DNA of 64,000 bases from an uncultured virus (IMG/VR IMGVR_UViG_3300032323_001173) (IMGVR_UViG_3300032323_001173), one strand, 5' to 3'; positions 6,539-63,924 are shown, counted from the first letter of the stretch. A program made the numbers and translations. Notes: a model not told the origin generated them from the sequence alone.

Positions 6539-6576
6539 AACCTAAAATCAACAATTAATCCTAGGAGGATTAGAAC

Positions 6577-27495: not shown

Positions 27496-27639
27496 GTTGG
27501 GAGGAGAGCCGTTAACACGGGTGGGGGAGAAAGGAGGGAAAGCCCCCACTCTGTCGTCCTGAGGAGGTCGCCCTCCTCCCAACACTCTAAACACTTTAGC
27601 ACCCGATCAGGAAAGTGCTAAAAGCGCTGGCGAGAGTGT
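27496..27639 (+). ncRNA. Candidate structured RNA/leader upstream of the replication initiator
   Basis: Nested stems 27496-27506/27573-27583, 27521-27527/27543-27549, 27582-27588/27633-27639 and 27595-27602/27615-27622. Confidence 0.5.
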
Positions 27640-27675
27640 AGCATGGCGACCCTATATAACAACCTGAGGAGAAGT

Positions 27676-41374: not shown

Positions 41375-41665
41375 ATGTCGCAAGACCTTAACGCCCCAAT
41401 TGAAGATGTCCTTAAAGTCTCGGGTTCCAGTAACCCACAGAGCGTTGGATCCATTCTCGCCCGTGCAGTCAACGCAGGGCAAGCACCAAAGATGCGAGCC
41501 ATCGGTGCAAGTGCTGTAAATCAAGCCGCTAAAGCCGCCGCTATCGCTAGGGGCTTTGTTGCCCCACGTGGTTTGGATCTCACTTACATTATTGGCTTTG
41601 ATGATATTATTGGAGATAACGGAGAAGCCATCTCGGCTATCTCATTTAAACCCGTAGTGAGGTAA
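41375..41665 (+). CDS. spoVS: Stage V sporulation protein S family (Alba-like fold)
   Basis: VLKVS..SNP.SV...AIGASAVNQA.KA.AIARGFVAP.G.DL...F. Confidence 0.92.
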   Translation: MSQDLNAPIEDVLKVSGSSNPQSVGSILARAVNAGQAPKMRAIGASAVNQAAKAAAIARGFVAPRGLDLTYIIGFDDIIGDNGEAISAISFKPVVR

Positions 41666-50593: not shown

Positions 50594-51010
50594 TTGCCTA
50601 ATCATCAAGATGACTGGCGCATTGATGCTCTCTGCAAAGACCGCCACATTGATCTTTGGTACCCACCACTAGATACTGATGTACCAGAGAATTACTATGT
50701 AATTTCTAGAGCAGTATGTCGTCAATGTCCTGTATGGAAAGAGTGTTTAGACGATGGGCTAGAAGAGAAGTGGGGATTGTGGGGCGGACTCACACCGCAA
50801 GAACGCACAGCGCTTACTGTTGAGCATCCGAAGGCAAGTGTACTTCGTGCACATGGCACGTGGACTCGTTACCGACAAGGTTGCAGGTGTACAGAATGTG
50901 TAGACGCTGAGTCAAAAGAGATTAATCAAATAAACATTCAAGAGATTCCTAAGATGGGTACGCAACTGATTGATTTAGAGATGCTTAAGTTCAGGTTGAT
51001 TCAGCCTTAA
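50594..51010 (+). CDS. whiB: WhiB-family transcriptional regulator with a C-terminal HGT..GCRC..C extension
   Basis: W...ALC...C..CPV...CL...GLWGGLT..ER. Confidence 0.9.
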   Translation: MPNHQDDWRIDALCKDRHIDLWYPPLDTDVPENYYVISRAVCRQCPVWKECLDDGLEEKWGLWGGLTPQERTALTVEHPKASVLRAHGTWTRYRQGCRCTECVDAESKEINQINIQEIPKMGTQLIDLEMLKFRLIQP

Positions 51011-55920: not shown

Positions 55921-55929
55921 GTGCCCTCC

Positions 55930-56136
55930 TTAAAGGCTCTTTGTTTGAATGTTGTTTGCTCTTCTGTACTCATCGTTGACCATCGTGTAGAACCCTTTGA
56001 GTTCTGCCACGGTGGCTTCACTGCTATCTATCTCGTTGTACAGCCCTTCTTCAAGGGCGTACTTGTCCATCTGTTCGGCTTCCATCTCTGTGACTCCGAG
56101 AAGCATGACGATCTGTGTGACCCAGCCCTTACTCAT
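55930..56136 (-). CDS. Hypothetical protein
   Basis: ATGA overlap; acidic. Confidence 0.55.
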   Translation of the reverse strand: MSKGWVTQIVMLLGVTEMEAEQMDKYALEEGLYNEIDSSEATVAELKGFYTMVNDEYRRANNIQTKSL

Positions 56137-56378: not shown

Positions 56379-56414
56379 GATGACCTCCTCAGATCATTGT
56401 TACTTATGGGTGTT

Positions 56415-56501
56415 GCGGGGTTGCTTCACCCCGTGAACACTCCCCAAGGCGGATCAAGGGGAGTGCTCACGGGATGACACCGACATGATCGGTGCCACCG
56501 C
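56415..56501 (-). ncRNA. Intergenic multi-helix RNA element, family B (divergent copy)
   Basis: TGGCACCGA/TCGGTGTCA hairpin followed directly by a long CCCGTGAGCACTCCCC/GGGGAGTGTTCACGGG hairpin. Confidence 0.5.
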
Positions 56502-56514
56502 TCGTGTGAGCCTC

Positions 56515-56766
56515 TCAGGACTCAATTAACGAATCTTCAATCCAATCTAGATCAATGTTGTACAGGTACACAACATGACCCTCGGGAGCGTAGAACTTGA
56601 TGTAGGCGCCCGAGTCGTCATCTTCAAACTGCTCATTGACACTGCCGATGTACTTCATCTTGGACAGTTGCTCCTGCCCGTAGTACTCGTTGGTGTTGAC
56701 GGAGGGGATCAAGAGATCCGCCTCCACCAAGTCCCTGCGGACTACTGGGTAACCACCGAGGATCAC
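56515..56766 (-). CDS. Hypothetical protein
   Basis: GTGA overlap; acidic. Confidence 0.55.
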   Translation of the reverse strand: MILGGYPVVRRDLVEADLLIPSVNTNEYYGQEQLSKMKYIGSVNEQFEDDDSGAYIKFYAPEGHVVYLYNIDLDWIEDSLIES

Positions 56767-56975
56767 GAGAACACGTCCACTTCAAGGATCTTGTTGAGCG
56801 GGATGTCAATCTCACGCTCGTTCTCGTAGGTGTCGTGTGGGCTGTCTGTAGTCCACAATGTCAACTCGGTGTCGCTGATTCGTGAAACGAGTCCTGTGTA
56901 CTCAAATGTCTCCCTCGGAGATATTTGCACGAGCAGTTCTACTTCATCGTCTACTTGCACATTGATGGTTTTCAT
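56763..56975 (-). CDS. Small beta-barrel (SH3/Sm-like) hypothetical protein
   Basis: SD GGAGG; YTGLVSRI...L.L...IDIPL..I.EV. Confidence 0.6.
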   Translation of the reverse strand: MKTINVQVDDEVELLVQISPRETFEYTGLVSRISDTELTLWTTDSPHDTYENEREIDIPLNKILEVDVFS

Positions 56976-57331
56976 TTGTTGCCTCCTTCAAGGTCTAACA
57001 CTGTTTGGTAATAATCTTCATTGCTCATTACTTGCACTTCGTACTTGGTGTTGAAGTCCCCAGTCCATGGGTACTCAGTCACGAAGTAACCGATGCGATT
57101 CACTAGATGACGTCCAGCGAGGATGTATGTGCCTTCCTGCCCGTCCACGTATGTCCACGTGGTGTAGAGCGGTTGCTTGTACACATACTCAACCTCAGCA
57201 CCGTACGTTTCAAACATGATGCCGTTGCCGTCTTCATCTGCCCACGATGCGTCTGCATCTAGGTGATTGACGATGGGCTTGTACTTCTCCTCCCATTCCT
57301 CAACTGACATCTTGATTACTGGCTGTAACAT
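56972..57331 (-). CDS. Conserved phage hypothetical protein
   Basis: SD GAGGAGG; FETYG.E...WT.VDG...G.H.VNRIGYFVTE.PW. Confidence 0.7.
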   Translation of the reverse strand: MLQPVIKMSVEEWEEKYKPIVNHLDADASWADEDGNGIMFETYGAEVEYVYKQPLYTTWTYVDGQEGTYILAGRHLVNRIGYFVTEYPWTGDFNTKYEVQVMSNEDYYQTVLDLEGGNK

Positions 57332-57366
57332 GCGACCTCCTCAGGTCTATAGGGATTAACTAAGTT

Positions 57367-57451
57367 ATCGGGTACTGCGTACCCTCACAACACACAAACA
57401 GAATTTATGTGCTGTGAGAGCACCACGAGCCGTAGCCCGTGATGCCCCGAT
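57367..57451 (-). ncRNA. Intergenic four-way RNA element, family B
   Basis: ATCGG/CCGAT closing stem; GCATCACGGGC-TACG-GCTCGTGGTGC; long hairpin; GTAC-GCA-GTAC. Confidence 0.65.
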
Positions 57452-57714
57452 CAGGCGACATCCTCCCACCATGTCTGTGGCATGTAGAAGTATGCGCCCT
57501 CATGCCAGCCGAATGAGTGGTTGTCAGTAGCGACATTCTCATTCAGCCAATCGGTGGCTACCTGCTCTTGGTACCACGAGTCCTCAATGTCGGTGGGCTG
57601 GCGCCCATCCCAACCAAGTTCTCGTGCGATCCTGCACGCTTCCATGGCGCTGTAGACGCCGTGGTGGTCGTCAACTACCAACCTTGCTCCGTAACCCATT
57701 GTCGCCTTGCTCAT
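57451..57714 (-). CDS. Hypothetical protein
   Basis: SD GGAGG; ATGA overlap. Confidence 0.65.
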   Translation of the reverse strand: MSKATMGYGARLVVDDHHGVYSAMEACRIARELGWDGRQPTDIEDSWYQEQVATDWLNENVATDNHSFGWHEGAYFYMPQTWWEDVA

Positions 57715-57995
57715 TGCTCTACCTCCATGTCAGCGAGCACGAATGGAATCTTGTAGTCAATGTCGTACGACAAGACCACGAAGTCTTCGTTGCCATTGCC
57801 TACGAGCGACTTGAGTTCTTCCTCGCCGTCTTCGCAGTAGAAGAAGACCTCATCGTCACGATTGCCCAGCGAGTCGTACTCGCCGTTCCACTCGTTCTCA
57901 TTCCACGTGCCGAACGAGATGTACACCTCGTCCTCCGCTTGCGTGTCCTTCCATTGGATAATTGCCCACGCACCTATTGGTGTTCCGATTGTCAT
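57711..57995 (-). CDS. Acidic hypothetical protein
   Basis: SD AAGGAG; TAATG coupling. Confidence 0.65.
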   Translation of the reverse strand: MTIGTPIGAWAIIQWKDTQAEDEVYISFGTWNENEWNGEYDSLGNRDDEVFFYCEDGEEELKSLVGNGNEDFVVLSYDIDYKIPFVLADMEVEQ

Positions 57996-58231
57996 TAGAA
58001 CTCTCCTTCTTGAGTGATGTCATAGTTAAGGTAATCCCATGTCAACTGGTTGACACTGCTGTAGCCACCGTTGGCGTCAAACACTGCAACTGCGTTGACC
58101 CACAGTTCCGAGTCTGCCGACAACTCGTTGTTGTCCTTGTCAGTGAACATGTTTGATTCCCACCAAGAGATAGCGATCTCTTCGTCAGGATCAATCCCAC
58201 TTAATAACTTGATTGCTTGACTTACTTTCAT
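57995..58231 (-). CDS. Hypothetical protein
   Basis: SD AAGGAGG; MKVSQAIKLL. Confidence 0.65.
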   Translation of the reverse strand: MKVSQAIKLLSGIDPDEEIAISWWESNMFTDKDNNELSADSELWVNAVAVFDANGGYSSVNQLTWDYLNYDITQEGEF

Positions 58232-58255
58232 GGTTCCCTCCTTACAGGGCTATTT

Positions 58256-58337
58256 GAACATCGGATGATGTCCTGACGGTACACCAGCGGTGTGCCGATG
58301 TACCGTCAGAACACCACGGGCTTGCGCCCGTGATGCA
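58256..58337 (-). ncRNA. Intergenic RNA element, family B
   Basis: GCATCACGGGC-GCAA-GCCCGTGGTGT; CTGACGGTACATCGGC/GCTGGTGTACCGTCAG; small 3' hairpin. Confidence 0.65.
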
Positions 58338-58415
58338 CTGTGAAGCGTCCAGTGAGGACTAGACGCTTCGGATGTCGCTACAGGCGCCGACCATGAAGGC
58401 GCCGAGCGCCAGTGG

Positions 58416-59945
58416 TCAGATGCCGTTGCCGACAATTGCTTCAATGAGCGCCTGAGTGATACTGCCACCCTCGGCTCCCATGTCTTCGCCTTGCCCAGTG
58501 AGAACACTGGAGACGACCTCGTGTTTGCTGTTGAGCAGTGCCCACATGCGATCGTCCAGCAGTGGAAGATCAGGATTGTTGCCCACACCAATCATCCACC
58601 AAGCGAGCACGCTTGATGTCTGACCGATGCGATGCGCACGATCCTCTGCCTGTGTGGCTTCTGCGGGAGTGAATGGGATCTCAGCGAACACCACGTGCGA
58701 TGACGCAGTGAGCGTGAGACCGACACCAGCAGATTGGAATTGCCCGATGAACACTTTGACCTCGGGGTCATTCTGAAATGCATCTACCGATGCCTGCTTG
58801 GCTTCATCATTCATTCCGCCGATGACACGCACCACGCCGTGTGGCTTGAGTGACTCGGTCAACTGTGCGATGACATCCTTGTGATGTGCGAACACGATGA
58901 CCTTCTCACCTTCAGCGACTAGTTGCTCAACGTGATCCACCACGTATGGCACCTTCGCAACACCGAGCAACTTGCGCAGTGCATTGAGCCGTGTGATGGT
59001 CTCAGCCTTGGATGCCTTCTGCCATGCCTCAGCACCGCCGTTGGCAATGATGAAGTCACGGAAGTCATTCTCGGCGTGCATGTATGCGTTGAGATCGCTG
59101 TCGCTGATCTCGGTCGCTACCTGTGCACGGCGCTTGGCAGGCAACTCGGTGAGCACGTCTGATTTGTTACGGCGCACGTAGCACGTGCCTCGCAACTTCT
59201 CATTCAACTCGGTGGTGTTGCTCGCACCGTTGTACACGTAACCCCAGCCATTGTGAATGGGATCGCAGTAACGGAAGCGGAACGCCGACTTGCCACCGAA
59301 CACTCGGTCAAGCCTGCCGAGAATATTCAGCGGGCTGATCAATTCGTTCGGACGATTGACGATGATGGTGCCACTCAAGAGCGTGACGTATCCCTCCTCA
59401 GGGATTGACTTCGCAATGAATGCGATGCCCTTGGTGCGTCCAGCGTTCTCAGTCTTGGCACGGTGTGCCTCGTCAACGATGAGCGCTCCAAACTTGCCAG
59501 CCAACTTGGTTGACCAAGCGTCAATGTTTGAGTCACCGATGATGACGACTGATTCCTTCGGTAGTGCACCGACTTTGTTGCCCGTCACCACAGCCACGTT
59601 GAGCCATGGAGCGAACATCTTGAATGATCGGAGCCAGTTGATGCGAAGCGATGGTGGCACTACTACGAGCACCTTGTGCTTCTCACTGACTGCCTGCACT
59701 GCAACAGCGATACCGCTCGGTGTCTTACCGAGACCCATCTCGTCACCGATGATGACACGCTTCTGCTTCAACGCATAAGCGACACCAGCACGTTGGAATG
59801 GGAACAGCGGAACAGCAAGTTCCACTGGGCATTCGCCGTCATGTGCACTGCTCAGTTCAAGCAACGCAGGGTCAGCAACGATTGCTGGTGGAATGCGATT
59901 CAGTGAACCGAGCAATGTATTTAATTGCTCTAATTGATTACTCAT
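58416..59945 (-). CDS. SNF2/HARP-like helicase
   Basis: DEMGLGKT, VDEAH, LSGT...NRP.EL, GVGLTLT and QAEDRAHRIGQ motifs. Confidence 0.92.
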   Translation of the reverse strand: MSNQLEQLNTLLGSLNRIPPAIVADPALLELSSAHDGECPVELAVPLFPFQRAGVAYALKQKRVIIGDEMGLGKTPSGIAVAVQAVSEKHKVLVVVPPSLRINWLRSFKMFAPWLNVAVVTGNKVGALPKESVVIIGDSNIDAWSTKLAGKFGALIVDEAHRAKTENAGRTKGIAFIAKSIPEEGYVTLLSGTIIVNRPNELISPLNILGRLDRVFGGKSAFRFRYCDPIHNGWGYVYNGASNTTELNEKLRGTCYVRRNKSDVLTELPAKRRAQVATEISDSDLNAYMHAENDFRDFIIANGGAEAWQKASKAETITRLNALRKLLGVAKVPYVVDHVEQLVAEGEKVIVFAHHKDVIAQLTESLKPHGVVRVIGGMNDEAKQASVDAFQNDPEVKVFIGQFQSAGVGLTLTASSHVVFAEIPFTPAEATQAEDRAHRIGQTSSVLAWWMIGVGNNPDLPLLDDRMWALLNSKHEVVSSVLTGQGEDMGAEGGSITQALIEAIVGNGI

Positions 59946-59980
59946 GGTCTGACCTCCTCAGGTCTATTGGAATTATTAAC

Positions 59981-60056
59981 TGCACTTGCGTGCTCACACT
60001 CCACGAGATCGCTCCCATGGAATGTGAGCACGCCACGAGCGTGTGCCCGTGACGTG
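59981..60056 (-). ncRNA. Intergenic RNA element, family B
   Basis: ACGTCACGGGC-ACAC-GCTCGTGGCGT; long hairpin with GCGA loop; GCAC-GCAA-GTGC. Confidence 0.65.
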
Positions 60057-60061
60057 ACCAC

Positions 60062-60778
60062 CTAGAACCTGCTTGCGCAGTCGTTACCGATGCCAGCCTT
60101 GCGTGTTGCTTCATCAGTGAGATGACGACCGCACACACAGCAACGCCCGATCTCTTGACCGTAGAGCGTCATTGCCTGCTTGCGTTCATCCTCACTGAGT
60201 GACGTGATGCGCTTGATTGAATTGACCAAGCGCTCGCCACGCAACTTCTCGTCAGCGTGACCGCCGACCACGATGTACATGCCACGTTGACCCTTGAGGC
60301 TCGCATTGTGGTAGCCCTTATTGGTCTTGATCGCATAGAACACGAGATCATTGGTGCCCGTTGACTGCAACGCATAGAAGCCGTCCTTGACGTCAGCGAA
60401 GAGCGACTGCTCATCAACTGGCTTGGCGATGACTTCGGCTGAGCACTCACCAGCCTTGTGGAATGTCTGCCAGCCACCAGCAGTTTGAACGCTCCAGCCA
60501 TGACCGATCTGCACGGTGTGTCCGCACAGTTGGCATGGCTTGGCGATCTTATTGACGATGGTGCGATCACCCTTAGGCAAGTGCTCGGTGCCCACCCGCT
60601 TGATCTCAATCTTTTTGATTGCATCAATGACGAGCGAAGCATCCTTGGTTGACAATGCATTCACGTTCTGATCTACGAGGTACTGGTCAACCCCAGCCTC
60701 ATCAAGACCGAGTGTGACCGCACGCTCTAAGAGCATCGTGCGAATGAATGCCTGTTGCTTTGGTGTTATTGCTCCCAT
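60062..60778 (-). CDS. DUF6011-domain protein
   Basis: T.KQ..FI..L N-terminus; G.CCVCGR.LTD......GIG.DCA. Confidence 0.8.
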   Translation of the reverse strand: MGAITPKQQAFIRTMLLERAVTLGLDEAGVDQYLVDQNVNALSTKDASLVIDAIKKIEIKRVGTEHLPKGDRTIVNKIAKPCQLCGHTVQIGHGWSVQTAGGWQTFHKAGECSAEVIAKPVDEQSLFADVKDGFYALQSTGTNDLVFYAIKTNKGYHNASLKGQRGMYIVVGGHADEKLRGERLVNSIKRITSLSEDERKQAMTLYGQEIGRCCVCGRHLTDEATRKAGIGNDCASRF

Positions 60779-60807
60779 AAAACCTCCTCAAGTTTCAGTT
60801 AGGGAAT

Positions 60808-60892
60808 GTGAATGGACTTGCGTCCTCGGAATGCACCGATGGGGGAACCGATGCACTCCGAGCACGCCATGGCTTGCGCCATGACTGCCCAC
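60808..60892 (-). ncRNA. Intergenic RNA element, family B
   Basis: GTCATGGC-GCAA-GCCATGGC; CTCGGAGTGCATCGGT/ATCGGTGCATTCCGAG; GGAC-GCAA-GTCC. Confidence 0.62.
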
Positions 60893-60902
60893 TGCTAATT
60901 GC

Positions 60903-61151
60903 TCAAACGTATTTTGATGTGATGTCTGCGATTGCATTTGACAACACCTGCTTAACGTTGCTGTCATCGTGAACGAACAGCGTGAGCGTGTGTTCCAACT
61001 TTGCGTAACCAAACGCCTCTTCACCGACTGGGTAGAAGGTATTGGTGTGAGCCAATTCCTGATACTCAATGACGATGTCTATCGTTTGGAATGTTGGGTC
61101 ATCAGACTTCGCAATGCGAATTCCAGTGACACGGTGGATACTTGCATCCAT
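60903..61151 (-). CDS. Hypothetical protein
   Basis: SD GAGGAGG. Confidence 0.65.
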   Translation of the reverse strand: MDASIHRVTGIRIAKSDDPTFQTIDIVIEYQELAHTNTFYPVGEEAFGYAKLEHTLTLFVHDDSNVKQVLSNAIADITSKYV

Positions 61152-61181
61152 AGTTGACCTCCTCGTGGTCTATTTGGGTTG

Positions 61182-61268
61182 GATCGGGCATTGTAATGCC
61201 CTCAGTACGCACCGACAACGCCGATGCGCACTGAGGGCACCACGGGCGAACCCGTGATGCTCCCGATC
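61182..61268 (-). ncRNA. Intergenic four-way RNA element, family B
   Basis: GATCGGG/CCCGATC; GCATCACGGG-TTCG-CCCGTGGTGC; long hairpin; GCAT-TACA-ATGC. Confidence 0.65.
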
Positions 61269-61270
61269 AC

Positions 61271-61807
61271 TCACACTCGTGATGCGATCTTCTCAATAAT
61301 TAATTGCAGAGTCTCAAGGTTGAGACCCATCAAGTCATCGTTGAGTTTGTTCCATTGCTTGTCAGTAACCGTGGGGCTACTGATGTGTCGGACAAGCGCA
61401 TTCACCTGCTGTTGCTTGGAGTATGTGTTGTCCTTTTTGGCTTGCCAATCAGCCTTTACTTCGGCGTCACGCTGTACCACGTATTCTTCAATGGTCTGAC
61501 CGAAGTCTGCGTGGTGCCACTCAATCTCACGTGGTGGAACCCACGAGCGTGTGTTCAGTGTTACTGAAGGCAAGCGCTCGGGGAACCCCTCGTGACCTTC
61601 ATAACCACTGTTGAATGTCTCGTAACGCACTGTGAATCGCACATCAACACGGGTGCCCGACTTGCGACCCCATTCGTTGTGAGTGTCCACGACCTTCTCC
61701 TCAATCTTGGTGATTGAGGCGTAGTGCGAGTACCGACCACGTCCGCCGTAACGGAACACCGCATTCGGATTCTTGGCAAGTATTTGCTTTATCTCTGATG
61801 TTTTCAT
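61271..61807 (-). CDS. Hypothetical protein
   Basis: SD GAGGAGG; 178 aa. Confidence 0.7.
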   Translation of the reverse strand: MKTSEIKQILAKNPNAVFRYGGRGRYSHYASITKIEEKVVDTHNEWGRKSGTRVDVRFTVRYETFNSGYEGHEGFPERLPSVTLNTRSWVPPREIEWHHADFGQTIEEYVVQRDAEVKADWQAKKDNTYSKQQQVNALVRHISSPTVTDKQWNKLNDDLMGLNLETLQLIIEKIASRV

Positions 61808-61844
61808 GGTGTGGAGCCTCCTCTGCTCCGAGGGCTATTTGCCC

Positions 61845-61887
61845 AGTCCCCAGTACCGATTGAACGGTCACGCCTAAAGCGCTGGGG
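61845..61887 (-). ncRNA. tRNA-elbow-like three-way junction, family A copy 1
   Basis: CCCCAG-CGCT-TTA-GGCG-TG-ACCG-TTCAAT-CGGT-A-CTGGGG-ACT. Confidence 0.72.
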
Positions 61888-61894
61888 GAATTGG

Positions 61895-62185
61895 TTAGTA
61901 GGAACCCCAATTGTCATCATCGGTGACGATGTTTCGCACGACATCGTCAGCGATACCGCACTTGATCAAGAATGCCCTGTTCTCTTCTGCCGTTCGGCAT
62001 TCATTGATCGCACCGCAGGACATGCCGAGTTGATCCGCAATTGACTGCCACAGCATCCACAGAGCGATGTGTGCACGCTCATGATGCCGATGCCACATTG
62101 CCTTGTCACTCTGCGTTGACATTGAATCAAAGCGGGCGTGCTGACAAATTGCCTTTGCAATTGTTTCTTCTATTCCGAATTTCAT
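61895..62185 (-). CDS. Hypothetical protein
   Basis: SD GAGGAGG before ATG 62185. Confidence 0.65.
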   Translation of the reverse strand: MKFGIEETIAKAICQHARFDSMSTQSDKAMWHRHHERAHIALWMLWQSIADQLGMSCGAINECRTAEENRAFLIKCGIADDVVRNIVTDDDNWGSY

Positions 62186-62229
62186 GGTGACCTCCTCGGG
62201 TCTTGTATTCACGACACTCGTGTGTCGCT

Positions 62230-62272
62230 AGTCCCCAGTGCGAATTGAATCGCCACGACCTAGTCGCTGGGG
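62230..62272 (-). ncRNA. tRNA-elbow-like three-way junction, family A copy 2
   Basis: CCCCAG-CGAC-TAG-GTCG-TG-GCGA-TTCAAT-TCGC-A-CTGGGG-ACT. Confidence 0.72.
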
Positions 62273-62277
62273 GAAAC

Positions 62278-62532
62278 TCACTGCGCCTTCTCCTTCGCTT
62301 GCTGTGCAAGTTGGAAGTCAAGGTGACTCACAGCGTCACGGCGGAGTTCATACGCTTCACCGTTAAATGCTCGGTCACCTGTTTCAATGTTGATGATCAG
62401 CCAGTCAACACGGCGAACCTCAGGGCAACCCTTGGTGTGAAACTTCCAACACAATTCGTGGTCACAACAGGATGGGTCAGCCCAGTATTCGTCCTTGATG
62501 ATGGCGTATTTGCTTCCCTTGTATGCCTTCAT
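62278..62532 (-). CDS. Hypothetical protein
   Basis: SD GAGGAGG; CCDH..C..H..GC. Confidence 0.65.
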   Translation of the reverse strand: MKAYKGSKYAIIKDEYWADPSCCDHELCWKFHTKGCPEVRRVDWLIINIETGDRAFNGEAYELRRDAVSHLDFQLAQQAKEKAQ

Positions 62533-62570
62533 GGTGCCTCCTCAGGCAGTTGTAACTGGCGGGTGCCAGT

Positions 62571-62613
62571 AGTCCCCAGTCCCGATTGAACGGGCACGCC
62601 CTAGGCGCTGGGG
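62571..62613 (-). ncRNA. tRNA-elbow-like three-way junction, family A copy 3
   Basis: CCCCAG-CGCC-TAG-GGCG-TG-CCCG-TTCAAT-CGGG-A-CTGGGG-ACT. Confidence 0.72.
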
Positions 62614-62619
62614 TGACGC

Positions 62620-63729: not shown

Positions 63730-63924
63730 GAGGAATAGGTGCCCTGAAGTCAGCGAACGGTGTGTGCCGTTGAGTAATGCGCCGTGGGGGACTGTTGTTC
63801 AATTCCCCCGTGGCGGGCGTGCATGGATCCGTTGAAGCCATCTCTGCGAGGCACGAGGTCAGCCGATGTGAAGTCGGGTACGTGCCACATGCATGCGTGC
63901 ATTTTTGCCGAAGCATTCGGGCGC

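Follow-up and report, generated by a model that had tools for sequence, protein, structure and literature searches.

Why should the ribosome-binding sites (RBSs) of a run of small phage genes lie within hairpins that share much the same loop? This question is raised by a 64,000-nucleotide stretch of DNA (the window), which comprises the greater part of the genome of an uncultured phage with a contractile tail (IMG/VR IMGVR_UViG_3300032323_001173). On its minus strand, in a module of mostly small open reading frames (ORFs), an initial annotation had placed the Shine-Dalgarno (SD) sequences of nine genes in covarying hairpins with a GAGGA loop, and had read them as a shared translational operator for early-gene shut-off. 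We find that the sequence of these elements changes across natural variants while their pairing is kept, and for this reason we consider it very probable that the RNA hairpin itself is what selection has maintained.

All nine minus-strand RBS hairpins are present where they had been placed, and each forms in the minimum-free-energy fold of its whole intergenic region (9/9). They contain 4-7 bp on the pattern NNCC(U)-GAGG-(A)GGNN, and their energies range from -3.4 to -6.6 kcal/mol in isolation and from -3.6 to -8.1 kcal/mol in context. Their geometry had been drawn as a 4-bp stem around a 6-nt loop, and here a correction is needed: the stem usually gains a U-A pair, such that a GAGG tetraloop on a 5-bp stem is found most often (GACCU-GAGG-AGGUC; in general NNCCU-GAGG-AGGNN). 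Two more hairpins, one preceding a 44-aa gene on the minus strand and the other the major capsid gene on the plus strand, bring the SD-hairpin sites in the window to 11 (energy pairs are isolated / in context, in kcal/mol):

62535..62548, minus strand: SD hairpin TGCCT-GAGG-AGGCA, gene start 62532 (-6.3 / -7.0)
62189..62202, minus strand: SD hairpin GACC-CGAGGA-GGTC, gene start 62185 (-3.5 / -5.0)
61813..61829, minus strand: SD hairpin GGAGC-AGAGGAG-GCTCC, gene start 61807 (-6.6 / -8.1)
61156..61170, minus strand: SD hairpin GACC-ACGAGGA-GGTC, gene start 61151 (-3.4 / -4.9)
60779..60796, minus strand: SD hairpin GAAACTT-GAGG-AGGTTTT, with G.U pairs, gene start 60778 (DUF6011 protein; -3.4 / -3.6)
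59951..59964, minus strand: SD hairpin GACCT-GAGG-AGGTC, gene start 59945 (SNF2-type helicase; -5.9 / -7.4)
58236..58249, minus strand: SD hairpin CCCT-GTAAGG-AGGG, gene start 58231 (-4.8 / -6.1)
57334..57347, minus strand: SD hairpin GACCT-GAGG-AGGTC, gene start 57331 (-5.9 / -7.3)
56380..56397, minus strand: SD hairpin ATGATCT-GAGG-AGGTCAT, with one U.G pair, gene start 56378 (-6.0 / -6.7)
55923..55937, minus strand: further SD hairpin GCCTTT-AAG-GAGGGC or GCCTT-TAAGG-AGGGC, 44-aa gene with start 55920 (-4.8 / -5.4)
6555..6573, plus strand: SD hairpin TTAATCCT-AGG-AGGATTAG of the major capsid gene, start 6577, behind an A/C-rich leader that is G-free or almost so

For the 55920 gene, 2 of 200 shuffles are as stable as the hairpin, and its 5' arm lies inside the end of the upstream gene. 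A separate hairpin, ATCCCT-GAGG-AGGGAT, is found inside the SNF2 helicase gene (59393-59410, minus strand), with a perfect SD, a TTG 14 nt downstream and a 320-aa in-frame ORF; it is kept only in the closest relatives. We did not count it as a start site, and it probably is not one.

The hairpins were compared with chance by two shuffle tests, both of which keep the SD core and permute its flanks; the gene calls used in the window are crude and include wrong starts. When starts were scored by pattern, an SD hairpin was found at 10 of the 13 called starts on the minus strand between 56133 and 62532, against 2.43 expected from flank shuffles (with its limit of one G.U pair, this test misses the AAACTT stem). 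The corresponding figures are 12 of 57 plus-strand starts with an SD (12.00 expected) and 2 of 9 for the other minus-strand starts (0.95 expected). When scored by energy, the starts of the minus-strand module have a mean of -5.43 kcal/mol versus -1.33 kcal/mol in shuffles, and nine of 13 reach -4 kcal/mol or below, one of these (56658) being a wrongly called start with a spurious hairpin; the plus-strand mean is -0.98 kcal/mol versus -0.97 kcal/mol in shuffles, with 4/57 at -4 kcal/mol or below. Furthermore, CCYGAGGAGG occurs six times in the window, against 0.11 expected. The enrichment is therefore specific to the small-gene module, relative both to plus-strand genes and to shuffles, a comparison that the initial annotation had itself named as a possible refutation. 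No convincing hairpin was seen at those module genes that overlap the preceding gene (57995, 57714, 56975, 56766 and 56136).

That the stems covary had been claimed from the window; the claim is borne out there, and much more clearly across relatives. A search of IMG/VR with the helicase gave 27 related loci (L019-L045) of 64-99% amino-acid identity, and these, together with the window, contain 246 GAGGAGG sites with a start codon downstream that opens an ORF of 40 codons or more, representing 98 distinct 25-mers. A hairpin of at least 4 bp surrounds the SD in 94 of these 98 contexts. Its loop is GAGG in 80 cases, the others being AGAGG, CGAGGA, AGAGGAG, ACGAGGA, TACGGAG and AGAGGA, and its stem takes many forms (GACC/GGTC, TACC/GGTA, TGCC/GGCA, GTCC/GGAC and versions with U.G pairs). 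In an ungapped alignment of the 98 contexts, 88.4% of the cells of the 5-bp helix are paired, versus 76.9% in shuffles, and the covariation score is 0.324, versus 0.147 in shuffles; 0/500 shuffles reach the observed value in either case, and registers in which the 3' partners are slid score 0.110 at most. The first variable pair is GC at 48 sites, UA at 20, AU at seven, GU at three and CG at one; the second is AU at 65, GC at 17 and UA at four. Kinship among the 98 sequences means that the shuffle figures overstate their independence; the slid-register control is unaffected by this, as are the compensatory changes at orthologous sites.

The latter are plain at the start of the SNF2 helicase gene: the group to which the window belongs has GACC..GGTC, a group at 76-80% identity has TTACC..GGTAA (the full site being TTACCT-GAGG-AGGTAA), and a single locus has GTACC..GGTAT. 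At least two stem variants occur in each of 14 gene families, grouped by their first five residues, and one family displays the whole path from GACCT/AGGTC through GACCT/AGGTT, with a G.U pair, to AACCT/AGGTT. Among 210 internal cells of closed stems, the non-Watson-Crick cells are 10 G.T, with no A.C and no other mismatch; the occurrence of G.T without A.C fits sense-strand RNA. We rejected a count of G.T versus A.C over all cells in a fixed register (21 vs 15), which is confounded by mis-registered sites, such that only the closed-stem count is informative. As a separate observation on the same loci, the triplet ACC, often as CACC or AACC, is very common directly 5' of the ATG at hairpin-bearing starts.

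A further key observation concerns the structural genes, at whose RBSs no such hairpin had been seen. As a class, plus-strand starts do equal their shuffles, but the major capsid gene is an exception. Its hairpin in the window (-5.3 to -5.7 kcal/mol) is matched in stability by 0/200 shuffles, and an SD hairpin is kept in 60/79 related capsid loci (26/39 distinct contexts), on stems that covary: TAATCC/GGATTA, TTATCC/GGATAA, TATCC/GGATA, TTTCC/GGAAA and GTTCC/GGAAT. Of the capsid loci without the hairpin, 10/19 have a weak, AAAGGAA-type SD; since this applies to most of them, hairpin and strong SD go together. A late gene thus has its own conserved, covarying SD hairpin, which argues against the proposal of a shared operator for early-gene shut-off.

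Two complete relatives allow the distribution to be seen at the scale of whole genomes. In both, the hairpins are confined to one small-gene module of about 8-9 kb, the major capsid gene excepted. In G001 (97,275 bp), hairpins at -3 kcal/mol or below occur at 12 of the 35 candidate starts of GGAGG type: ten lie at 61.0-68.0 kb on one strand (one of them the internal helicase-gene site), one belongs to the capsid gene, and one, at 74987, is doubtful. In G004 (94,948 bp) the count is 14 of 40, with 13 in one block that spans the contig ends and the fourteenth at the capsid gene. The lineage is myovirus-like and about 95 kb in size (several complete relatives measure 95-97 kb), and it is a recurrent and frequent one in public metagenomes, with more than 600 matches to the window's capsid in IMG/VR. 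Its closest cultured phages by capsid protein, at about 59% identity, are Streptomyces myophages of the BRock type, and no blastn match to the 8-kb hairpin region was found among cultured phages. BRock has the same layout: its small genes form a block on one strand, and the opposite strand encodes WhiB, polymerase, helicase and a SpoVS-like 'sporulation protein'. Yet in its early block none of 21 SD starts reaches -4 kcal/mol (mean -0.31 vs -0.80 kcal/mol shuffled), and elsewhere just one of 68 does so, which is not that of the capsid gene. We therefore regard the SD hairpin as a trait of the uncultured lineage.

In the window itself, Pfam scans place portal, capsid, sheath, tube, baseplate, DnaB, primase, SNF2 helicase, PolA, RecA, SpoVS and WhiB on the plus strand (1-53043). 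The minus strand, read from 64000 to 53382, holds the module of mostly small ORFs without a known family, which has a G+C content of 52-57%, versus 41-51% in the rest of the window. Individual genes are as follows:

41375-41665, plus strand: SpoVS (E 8.5e-20)
50594-51010, plus strand: WhiB
59945-58416, minus strand: SNF2-type helicase, an exception with a known family in the small-ORF module
60778-60062, minus strand: DUF6011 protein, a second such exception
54407-53382, minus strand: DUF932 protein, a third such exception

The presence of WhiB and the capsid's kinship with Streptomyces phages make it likely that the host is an actinobacterium. In host genomes, a WhiB query retrieved no relative, and a RecA query retrieved a single Gemmatimonadales metagenome-assembled genome at 52%, which is useless for naming the host. 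Elsewhere on the plus strand, a 210-aa ORF (2349-2981) has a partial match to proteasome subunits (PF00227, E 2.6e-8, residues 143-195) and is adjoined by a metallophosphatase-like ORF, and a perfect hairpin, GAGGAGG/CCTCCTC with a TCGC loop, lies at about 27555-27585, in the gap between the structural block and a helix-turn-helix gene at 27643. A tRNA scan found none.

What, then, surrounds the SD hairpin? The nine minus-strand leaders that carry it (56379..62619) share an order of parts: upstream hairpins, an A/C-rich and G-poor tract of about 10 nt, the SD hairpin, and a start codon 4-10 nt past GGAGG. Their positions are:

56379-56514, 57332-57450, 58232-58415, 59946-60061, 60779-60902, 61152-61270, 61808-61894, 62186-62277 and 62533-62619, minus strand: hairpin-carrying leaders

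Over 134 unique sites, the distance from the end of GGAGG to the start codon is 4-11 nt, and at -14..-6 before GAGGAGG the content of G is down to 2-14% and that of A is up to 44-59%. Eight of the nine leaders are more stable as sense than as antisense RNA (sums of -516.7 vs -412.2 kcal/mol). Their upstream hairpins are very stable, at -33 to -101 kcal/mol per leader, and lack U-tails; UUCG, UACG and GCAA tetraloops can be read in their sequences. U-tailed terminator-like sites occur at the level of chance (7 vs 8.7 expected), as do sigma-70 promoter-like sites (7 vs 7.4 expected, in a scan that covers actinobacterial promoters poorly), and no -10-like hexamer was seen by eye at a fixed distance from the hairpins. 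With both scans at chance, the leader structures have the look of RNA elements and not of terminators or promoters of the E. coli type.

Several repeated structures are found in the same leaders. The first six of those given above (56379-56514 to 61152-61270) contain one to three very stable hairpins of 15-20 bp each. One leader hairpin recurs as GCATCACGGG-(UUCG/UACG/GCAA)-CCCGUGGUGC, and in a short hairpin with a GCAA loop the stem covaries between relatives (GCAC/GTGC vs GGAC/GTCC). A 41-nt element is present in three copies (62573-62613, 62232-62272 and 61847-61887, minus strand), in the order CCCCAGCG, hairpin 1, TG, hairpin 2 with an invariant TTCAAT loop, and ACTGGGGA. Relatives have 12 variants of it, in which both inner stems covary (GCTC/GAGC, CCCG/CGGG, CGGA/TCCG, ACCG/CGGT, GCGA/TCGC) and the TTCAAT loop and outer stem are constant; it has no Rfam match. 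The Rfam scan as a whole gave just two sub-threshold matches, HepC_CRE and a PyrR binding site at 56433-56536 (minus strand), in the leader of gene 56378; the latter (37.1 bits vs a gathering score of 54, E 0.032) is probably due to chance.

Two properties of the start region itself bear on its function. First, the duplex predicted between the SD and the anti-SD (computed with a canonical anti-SD tail) has an energy of -10.2 to -15.9 kcal/mol, versus -4.9 to -8.1 kcal/mol for the hairpin; being stronger by about 5-9 kcal/mol, it should allow the ribosome to open the hairpin. Second, in eight cases or more, genes whose products have clearly different N-termini share an identical 26-nt start context, which suggests that genes have been exchanged at start cassettes.

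We tentatively hypothesize, with something short of even confidence, that the hairpin is a cis-acting part of a standard start module for leader-bearing genes: the nine leftward genes of the small-gene module, the 55920 gene and the major capsid gene. We infer that it would work by standby and insulation, with no protein needed. The module would open with some 10 nt rich in A and C and almost devoid of G. Next would come a hairpin of 4-7 bp whose loop presents GAGG or GGA and whose stem takes in the 3' half of the SD (GAGGAGGU), which is unusually long, and the start codon would follow 4-10 nt downstream. For the 30S subunit, the single-stranded A/C tract would provide a standby site, from which it would pair with the loop bases first and then open the weak stem; since SD:anti-SD pairing is predicted to be the stronger of the two, the hairpin would slow initiation without blocking it. 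The gain would be that the purine-rich SD is kept out of very stable neighbouring RNA structures and out of the joined gene, so that every gene, swapped-in ones too, would receive a standard initiation rate. The hairpin may also protect the SD region from nucleases. That hairpin and strong SD are linked, and that they are used by the late protein produced in the largest amounts, suggests that the arrangement is designed for reliable initiation and not simply to repress.

A number of points weigh against this proposal. The closest cultured relative that was found, BRock, works without hairpins, and its leaders are similarly rich in A and C. Within the window, the leader-bearing minus-strand genes 63597 and 54407 have no hairpin, and on the plus strand, by the crude gene calls, just two of the 35 genes preceded by a gap of 30 nt or more have one, of which one is a doubtful call; a leader alone is therefore not sufficient for a hairpin. 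The window-side statistics depend on those same calls, with their wrong starts. The asymmetry between G.T and A.C cells can be traced to no more than two gene families, and C-to-T changes are in any case common mutations. Moreover, a hairpin that hides half of the SD could equally serve repression, and since the loop is the SD itself, its constancy argues neither for nor against a protein reader.

Such a reader is central to the strongest of the alternatives, which we consider possible but doubtful: a translational operator, in which a trans-acting RNA-binding protein of phage or host would recognise a GGA or GAGG loop on any stem and repress or activate a gene set that includes the capsid gene. 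Hairpins recognised by proteins usually look like this, with a loop that stays constant while the stem varies freely, but the ribosome already explains the constancy here. An operator would also account for the confinement of the hairpins to one module and one late gene (12/35 and 14/40 of the candidate starts in the two complete genomes), and that module encodes many small proteins without an assigned function from which a reader might be drawn; on the other hand, an operator common to early genes and the capsid gene misfits simple early shut-off. CsrA/RsmA sites have GGA in a hairpin loop over the SD, and in this respect the likeness drawn by the initial annotation stands, since the window phage has GGA in a short hairpin loop that overlaps the SD. 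A link to CsrA itself is not supported on the phage side: the family PF02599 is found in 0/5 complete related phage genomes, and among 138 ORFs of the window and its relatives (40, 54 and 44) Pfam scans picked up neither CsrA nor any other family of RNA-binding proteins. In addition, an actinobacterium is the probable host, there is one site per leader, not two or more, and the loop GAGG(A) is simply the SD.

The suggested resemblance to T4 RegB targets fares worse, beyond the fact that GGAG lies within the SDs of early phage genes in both. As described in passages of Durand et al. 2006 (PMC1702504), the target of RegB with S1 is 11 nt of single-stranded RNA comprising GGAG and an A-rich tail free of C, and structure is inhibitory, such that nucleases of this type need unstructured targets. 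In the window phage, GGAG lies in a hairpin and is then followed by UC or CA; the bases next in line are usually TCA, CAC or TAT and often include C, unlike the A-rich 7-nt tail without C. Against such an enzyme the hairpin would, if anything, be a protection.

Two proteins had been put forward as candidate readers, and neither is upheld. BRock has a homologue of SpoVS (43% over 86 aa) and yet no SD hairpins. The other candidate, the ORF at 56763-56975 (minus strand), encodes 70 aa, is translationally coupled within the module and belongs to no Pfam family. Its structural model (pLDDT 90.5) predicts a five-stranded small beta-barrel of the SH3/Sm-like kind, with no N-terminal helix. The predicted fold resembles Sm/LSm/Hfq chains (Z 7-8), but the barrels of bL19, the BirA C-terminal domain, MscS and WYL are just as similar (Z 7-8.3). 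A Foldseek search of the PDB gave no match at E <= 0.001; in the ESM Atlas the best rows are unnamed, and one row (0.88) with DUF150_C in 18% of its members offers a lead only. Against a role for this ORF as reader, it has no tblastn match in the G004 lineage (L041-L043, L131-L135), which has 13 module hairpins. We also regard as unlikely a bolder version of these ideas, in which the SD hairpin is a lineage-specific start code: a dedicated factor (an RNA-binding protein of phage or host, or a phage-altered ribosome) would couple about ten early genes to the capsid gene, and the start-associated sequences (SAS) of mycobacteriophages, to which we return below, would be the same kind of element. 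If this were true, actinophages would share a hairpin-based layer of translational control.

A quite unlikely explanation is that the hairpins serve mRNA stability or processing. A long transcript would be cut in its structured intergenic regions, after which the SD hairpin, with its ribosome, would guard the downstream mRNA near the new 5' end, and the large upstream hairpins would guard the 3' end of the preceding mRNA. The leaders themselves lend this idea some appeal, since every hairpin-bearing one also has the very stable sense-strand hairpins without U-tails that, with terminator-like and promoter-like sites no more frequent than expected, look like RNA elements; there is also a precedent at B. 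subtilis hbs, where a strong SD is reported to block a 5' exonuclease (PMC5737220). The capsid gene is difficult to accommodate, as its leader has an SD hairpin but an upstream gap of just 38 nt and no large hairpin. Neither cleavage sites nor transcript ends, strand or expression level can be read from the RNA libraries that contain relatives (one freshwater metatranscriptome and two wastewater libraries); the relatives are present there as short contigs only (5-13% of sampled words), which are evidence neither way.

It is improbable that the inverted repeat is a DNA-level feature, either a recombination joint of mobile cassettes or a protein or cruciform site, with the RNA hairpin as a by-product. 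Identical start contexts before unrelated genes, and different stems on orthologues, are what exchange of cassettes at conserved joints would be expected to produce. However, homology-driven exchange explains the spread of cassettes and not the self-complementarity of every cassette around the SD; covariation that keeps complementarity rather than sequence misfits a protein operator on DNA, and internal mismatches are G.T only (10 vs 0 A.C). Finally, chance, or the hitch-hiking of one duplicated RBS sequence, has next to no probability: 5/9 window sites do have GACC..GGTC and a AATAGACC-like context, but this reading is refuted by the compensatory changes at orthologous sites, the shuffle energies, the covariation statistics and conservation over hundreds of sites in relatives.

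How does the SD hairpin compare with known systems? We found no description of covarying SD hairpins in phage early genes in the open-access literature. The promoter-early stem-loop cassettes (PeSLs) of T4-like phages are reportedly repeated cassettes that bound small early genes and allow exchange at conserved joints. The window phage is similar in that small early genes without an assigned function are bounded by a repeated stem-loop cassette, with signs of exchange; it differs in that the conserved piece is the SD hairpin itself. The early promoter consensus that accompanies the stem-loop of PeSLs was not found in the window, in a scan that covers actinobacterial promoters poorly. For the coat gene of MS2, de Smit and van Duin are said to have proposed a ribosome standby site. 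In Sterk et al. 2018 (PMC5934652), the RBS of that gene is a start site in a modest hairpin with a single-stranded 5' flank, and an RBS held in a hairpin is translated much more strongly when it has a 5' tail of CA repeats. The leaders of the window phage have, by prediction, the same arrangement, with the A/C tract at -14..-6 and hairpins of -4.9 to -8.1 kcal/mol. The MS2 case differs in that it concerns one gene in an RNA phage, whereas here there are at least 10 sites per genome, the SD and not the AUG is in the loop and stem, and the structure is a predicted one.

The closest analogue is the SAS, with their associated ESAS, of cluster K mycobacteriophages. As set out in excerpts of the 2011 description (PMC3203893), SAS contains the SD, lies 3-7 bp upstream of gene starts in the genome's non-structural half and has symmetric ends. 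SD start motifs of actinophage genes have thus been known since 2011 without an explanation, and passages of papers from 2024-2025 still call the function of SAS unknown (PMC11373665, PMC12699233). The likeness to the window lineage lies in a repeated motif with an SD core that stands a few bases before the starts of a subset of genes (11-19 of them for SAS; 11 sites in the window, with GGAGG ending 4-11 nt before the start over the 134 unique sites), often with a larger inverted repeat upstream, and the outer parts of SAS are symmetric (GGG-N7-CCC). SAS keep almost entirely to the non-structural half of their actinophage genomes; in two complete relatives of the window phage, the hairpins keep to one module, apart from that of the major capsid gene. 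There are also differences. SAS is a fixed 13-nt sequence, GGGATAGGAGCCC, whereas the window phage varies the sequence and keeps the pairing; with up to two mismatches, GGGATAGGAGCCC has one match in the window (63732-63744, plus strand, two mismatches; 0.58 expected), which is on the wrong strand and not at a gene start. The 4-7 bp stem of the window lineage takes in the SD's 3' half. According to the same excerpts, ESAS hold SigA-like promoters and were judged not to be RNA hairpins, whereas the upstream hairpins of the window look like RNA. The phage lineage is also another one (myovirus-like, about 95 kb), and its capsid gene is included. If the start module that we propose is correct, it would be relevant both to research on phage gene expression and to the design of portable ribosome-binding sites. 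For SAS, the comparison raises the question of whether the GGG/CCC pairing matters there, and unlike SAS, the present lineage offers hundreds of natural variants in which the sequence has changed and the pairing has been kept.

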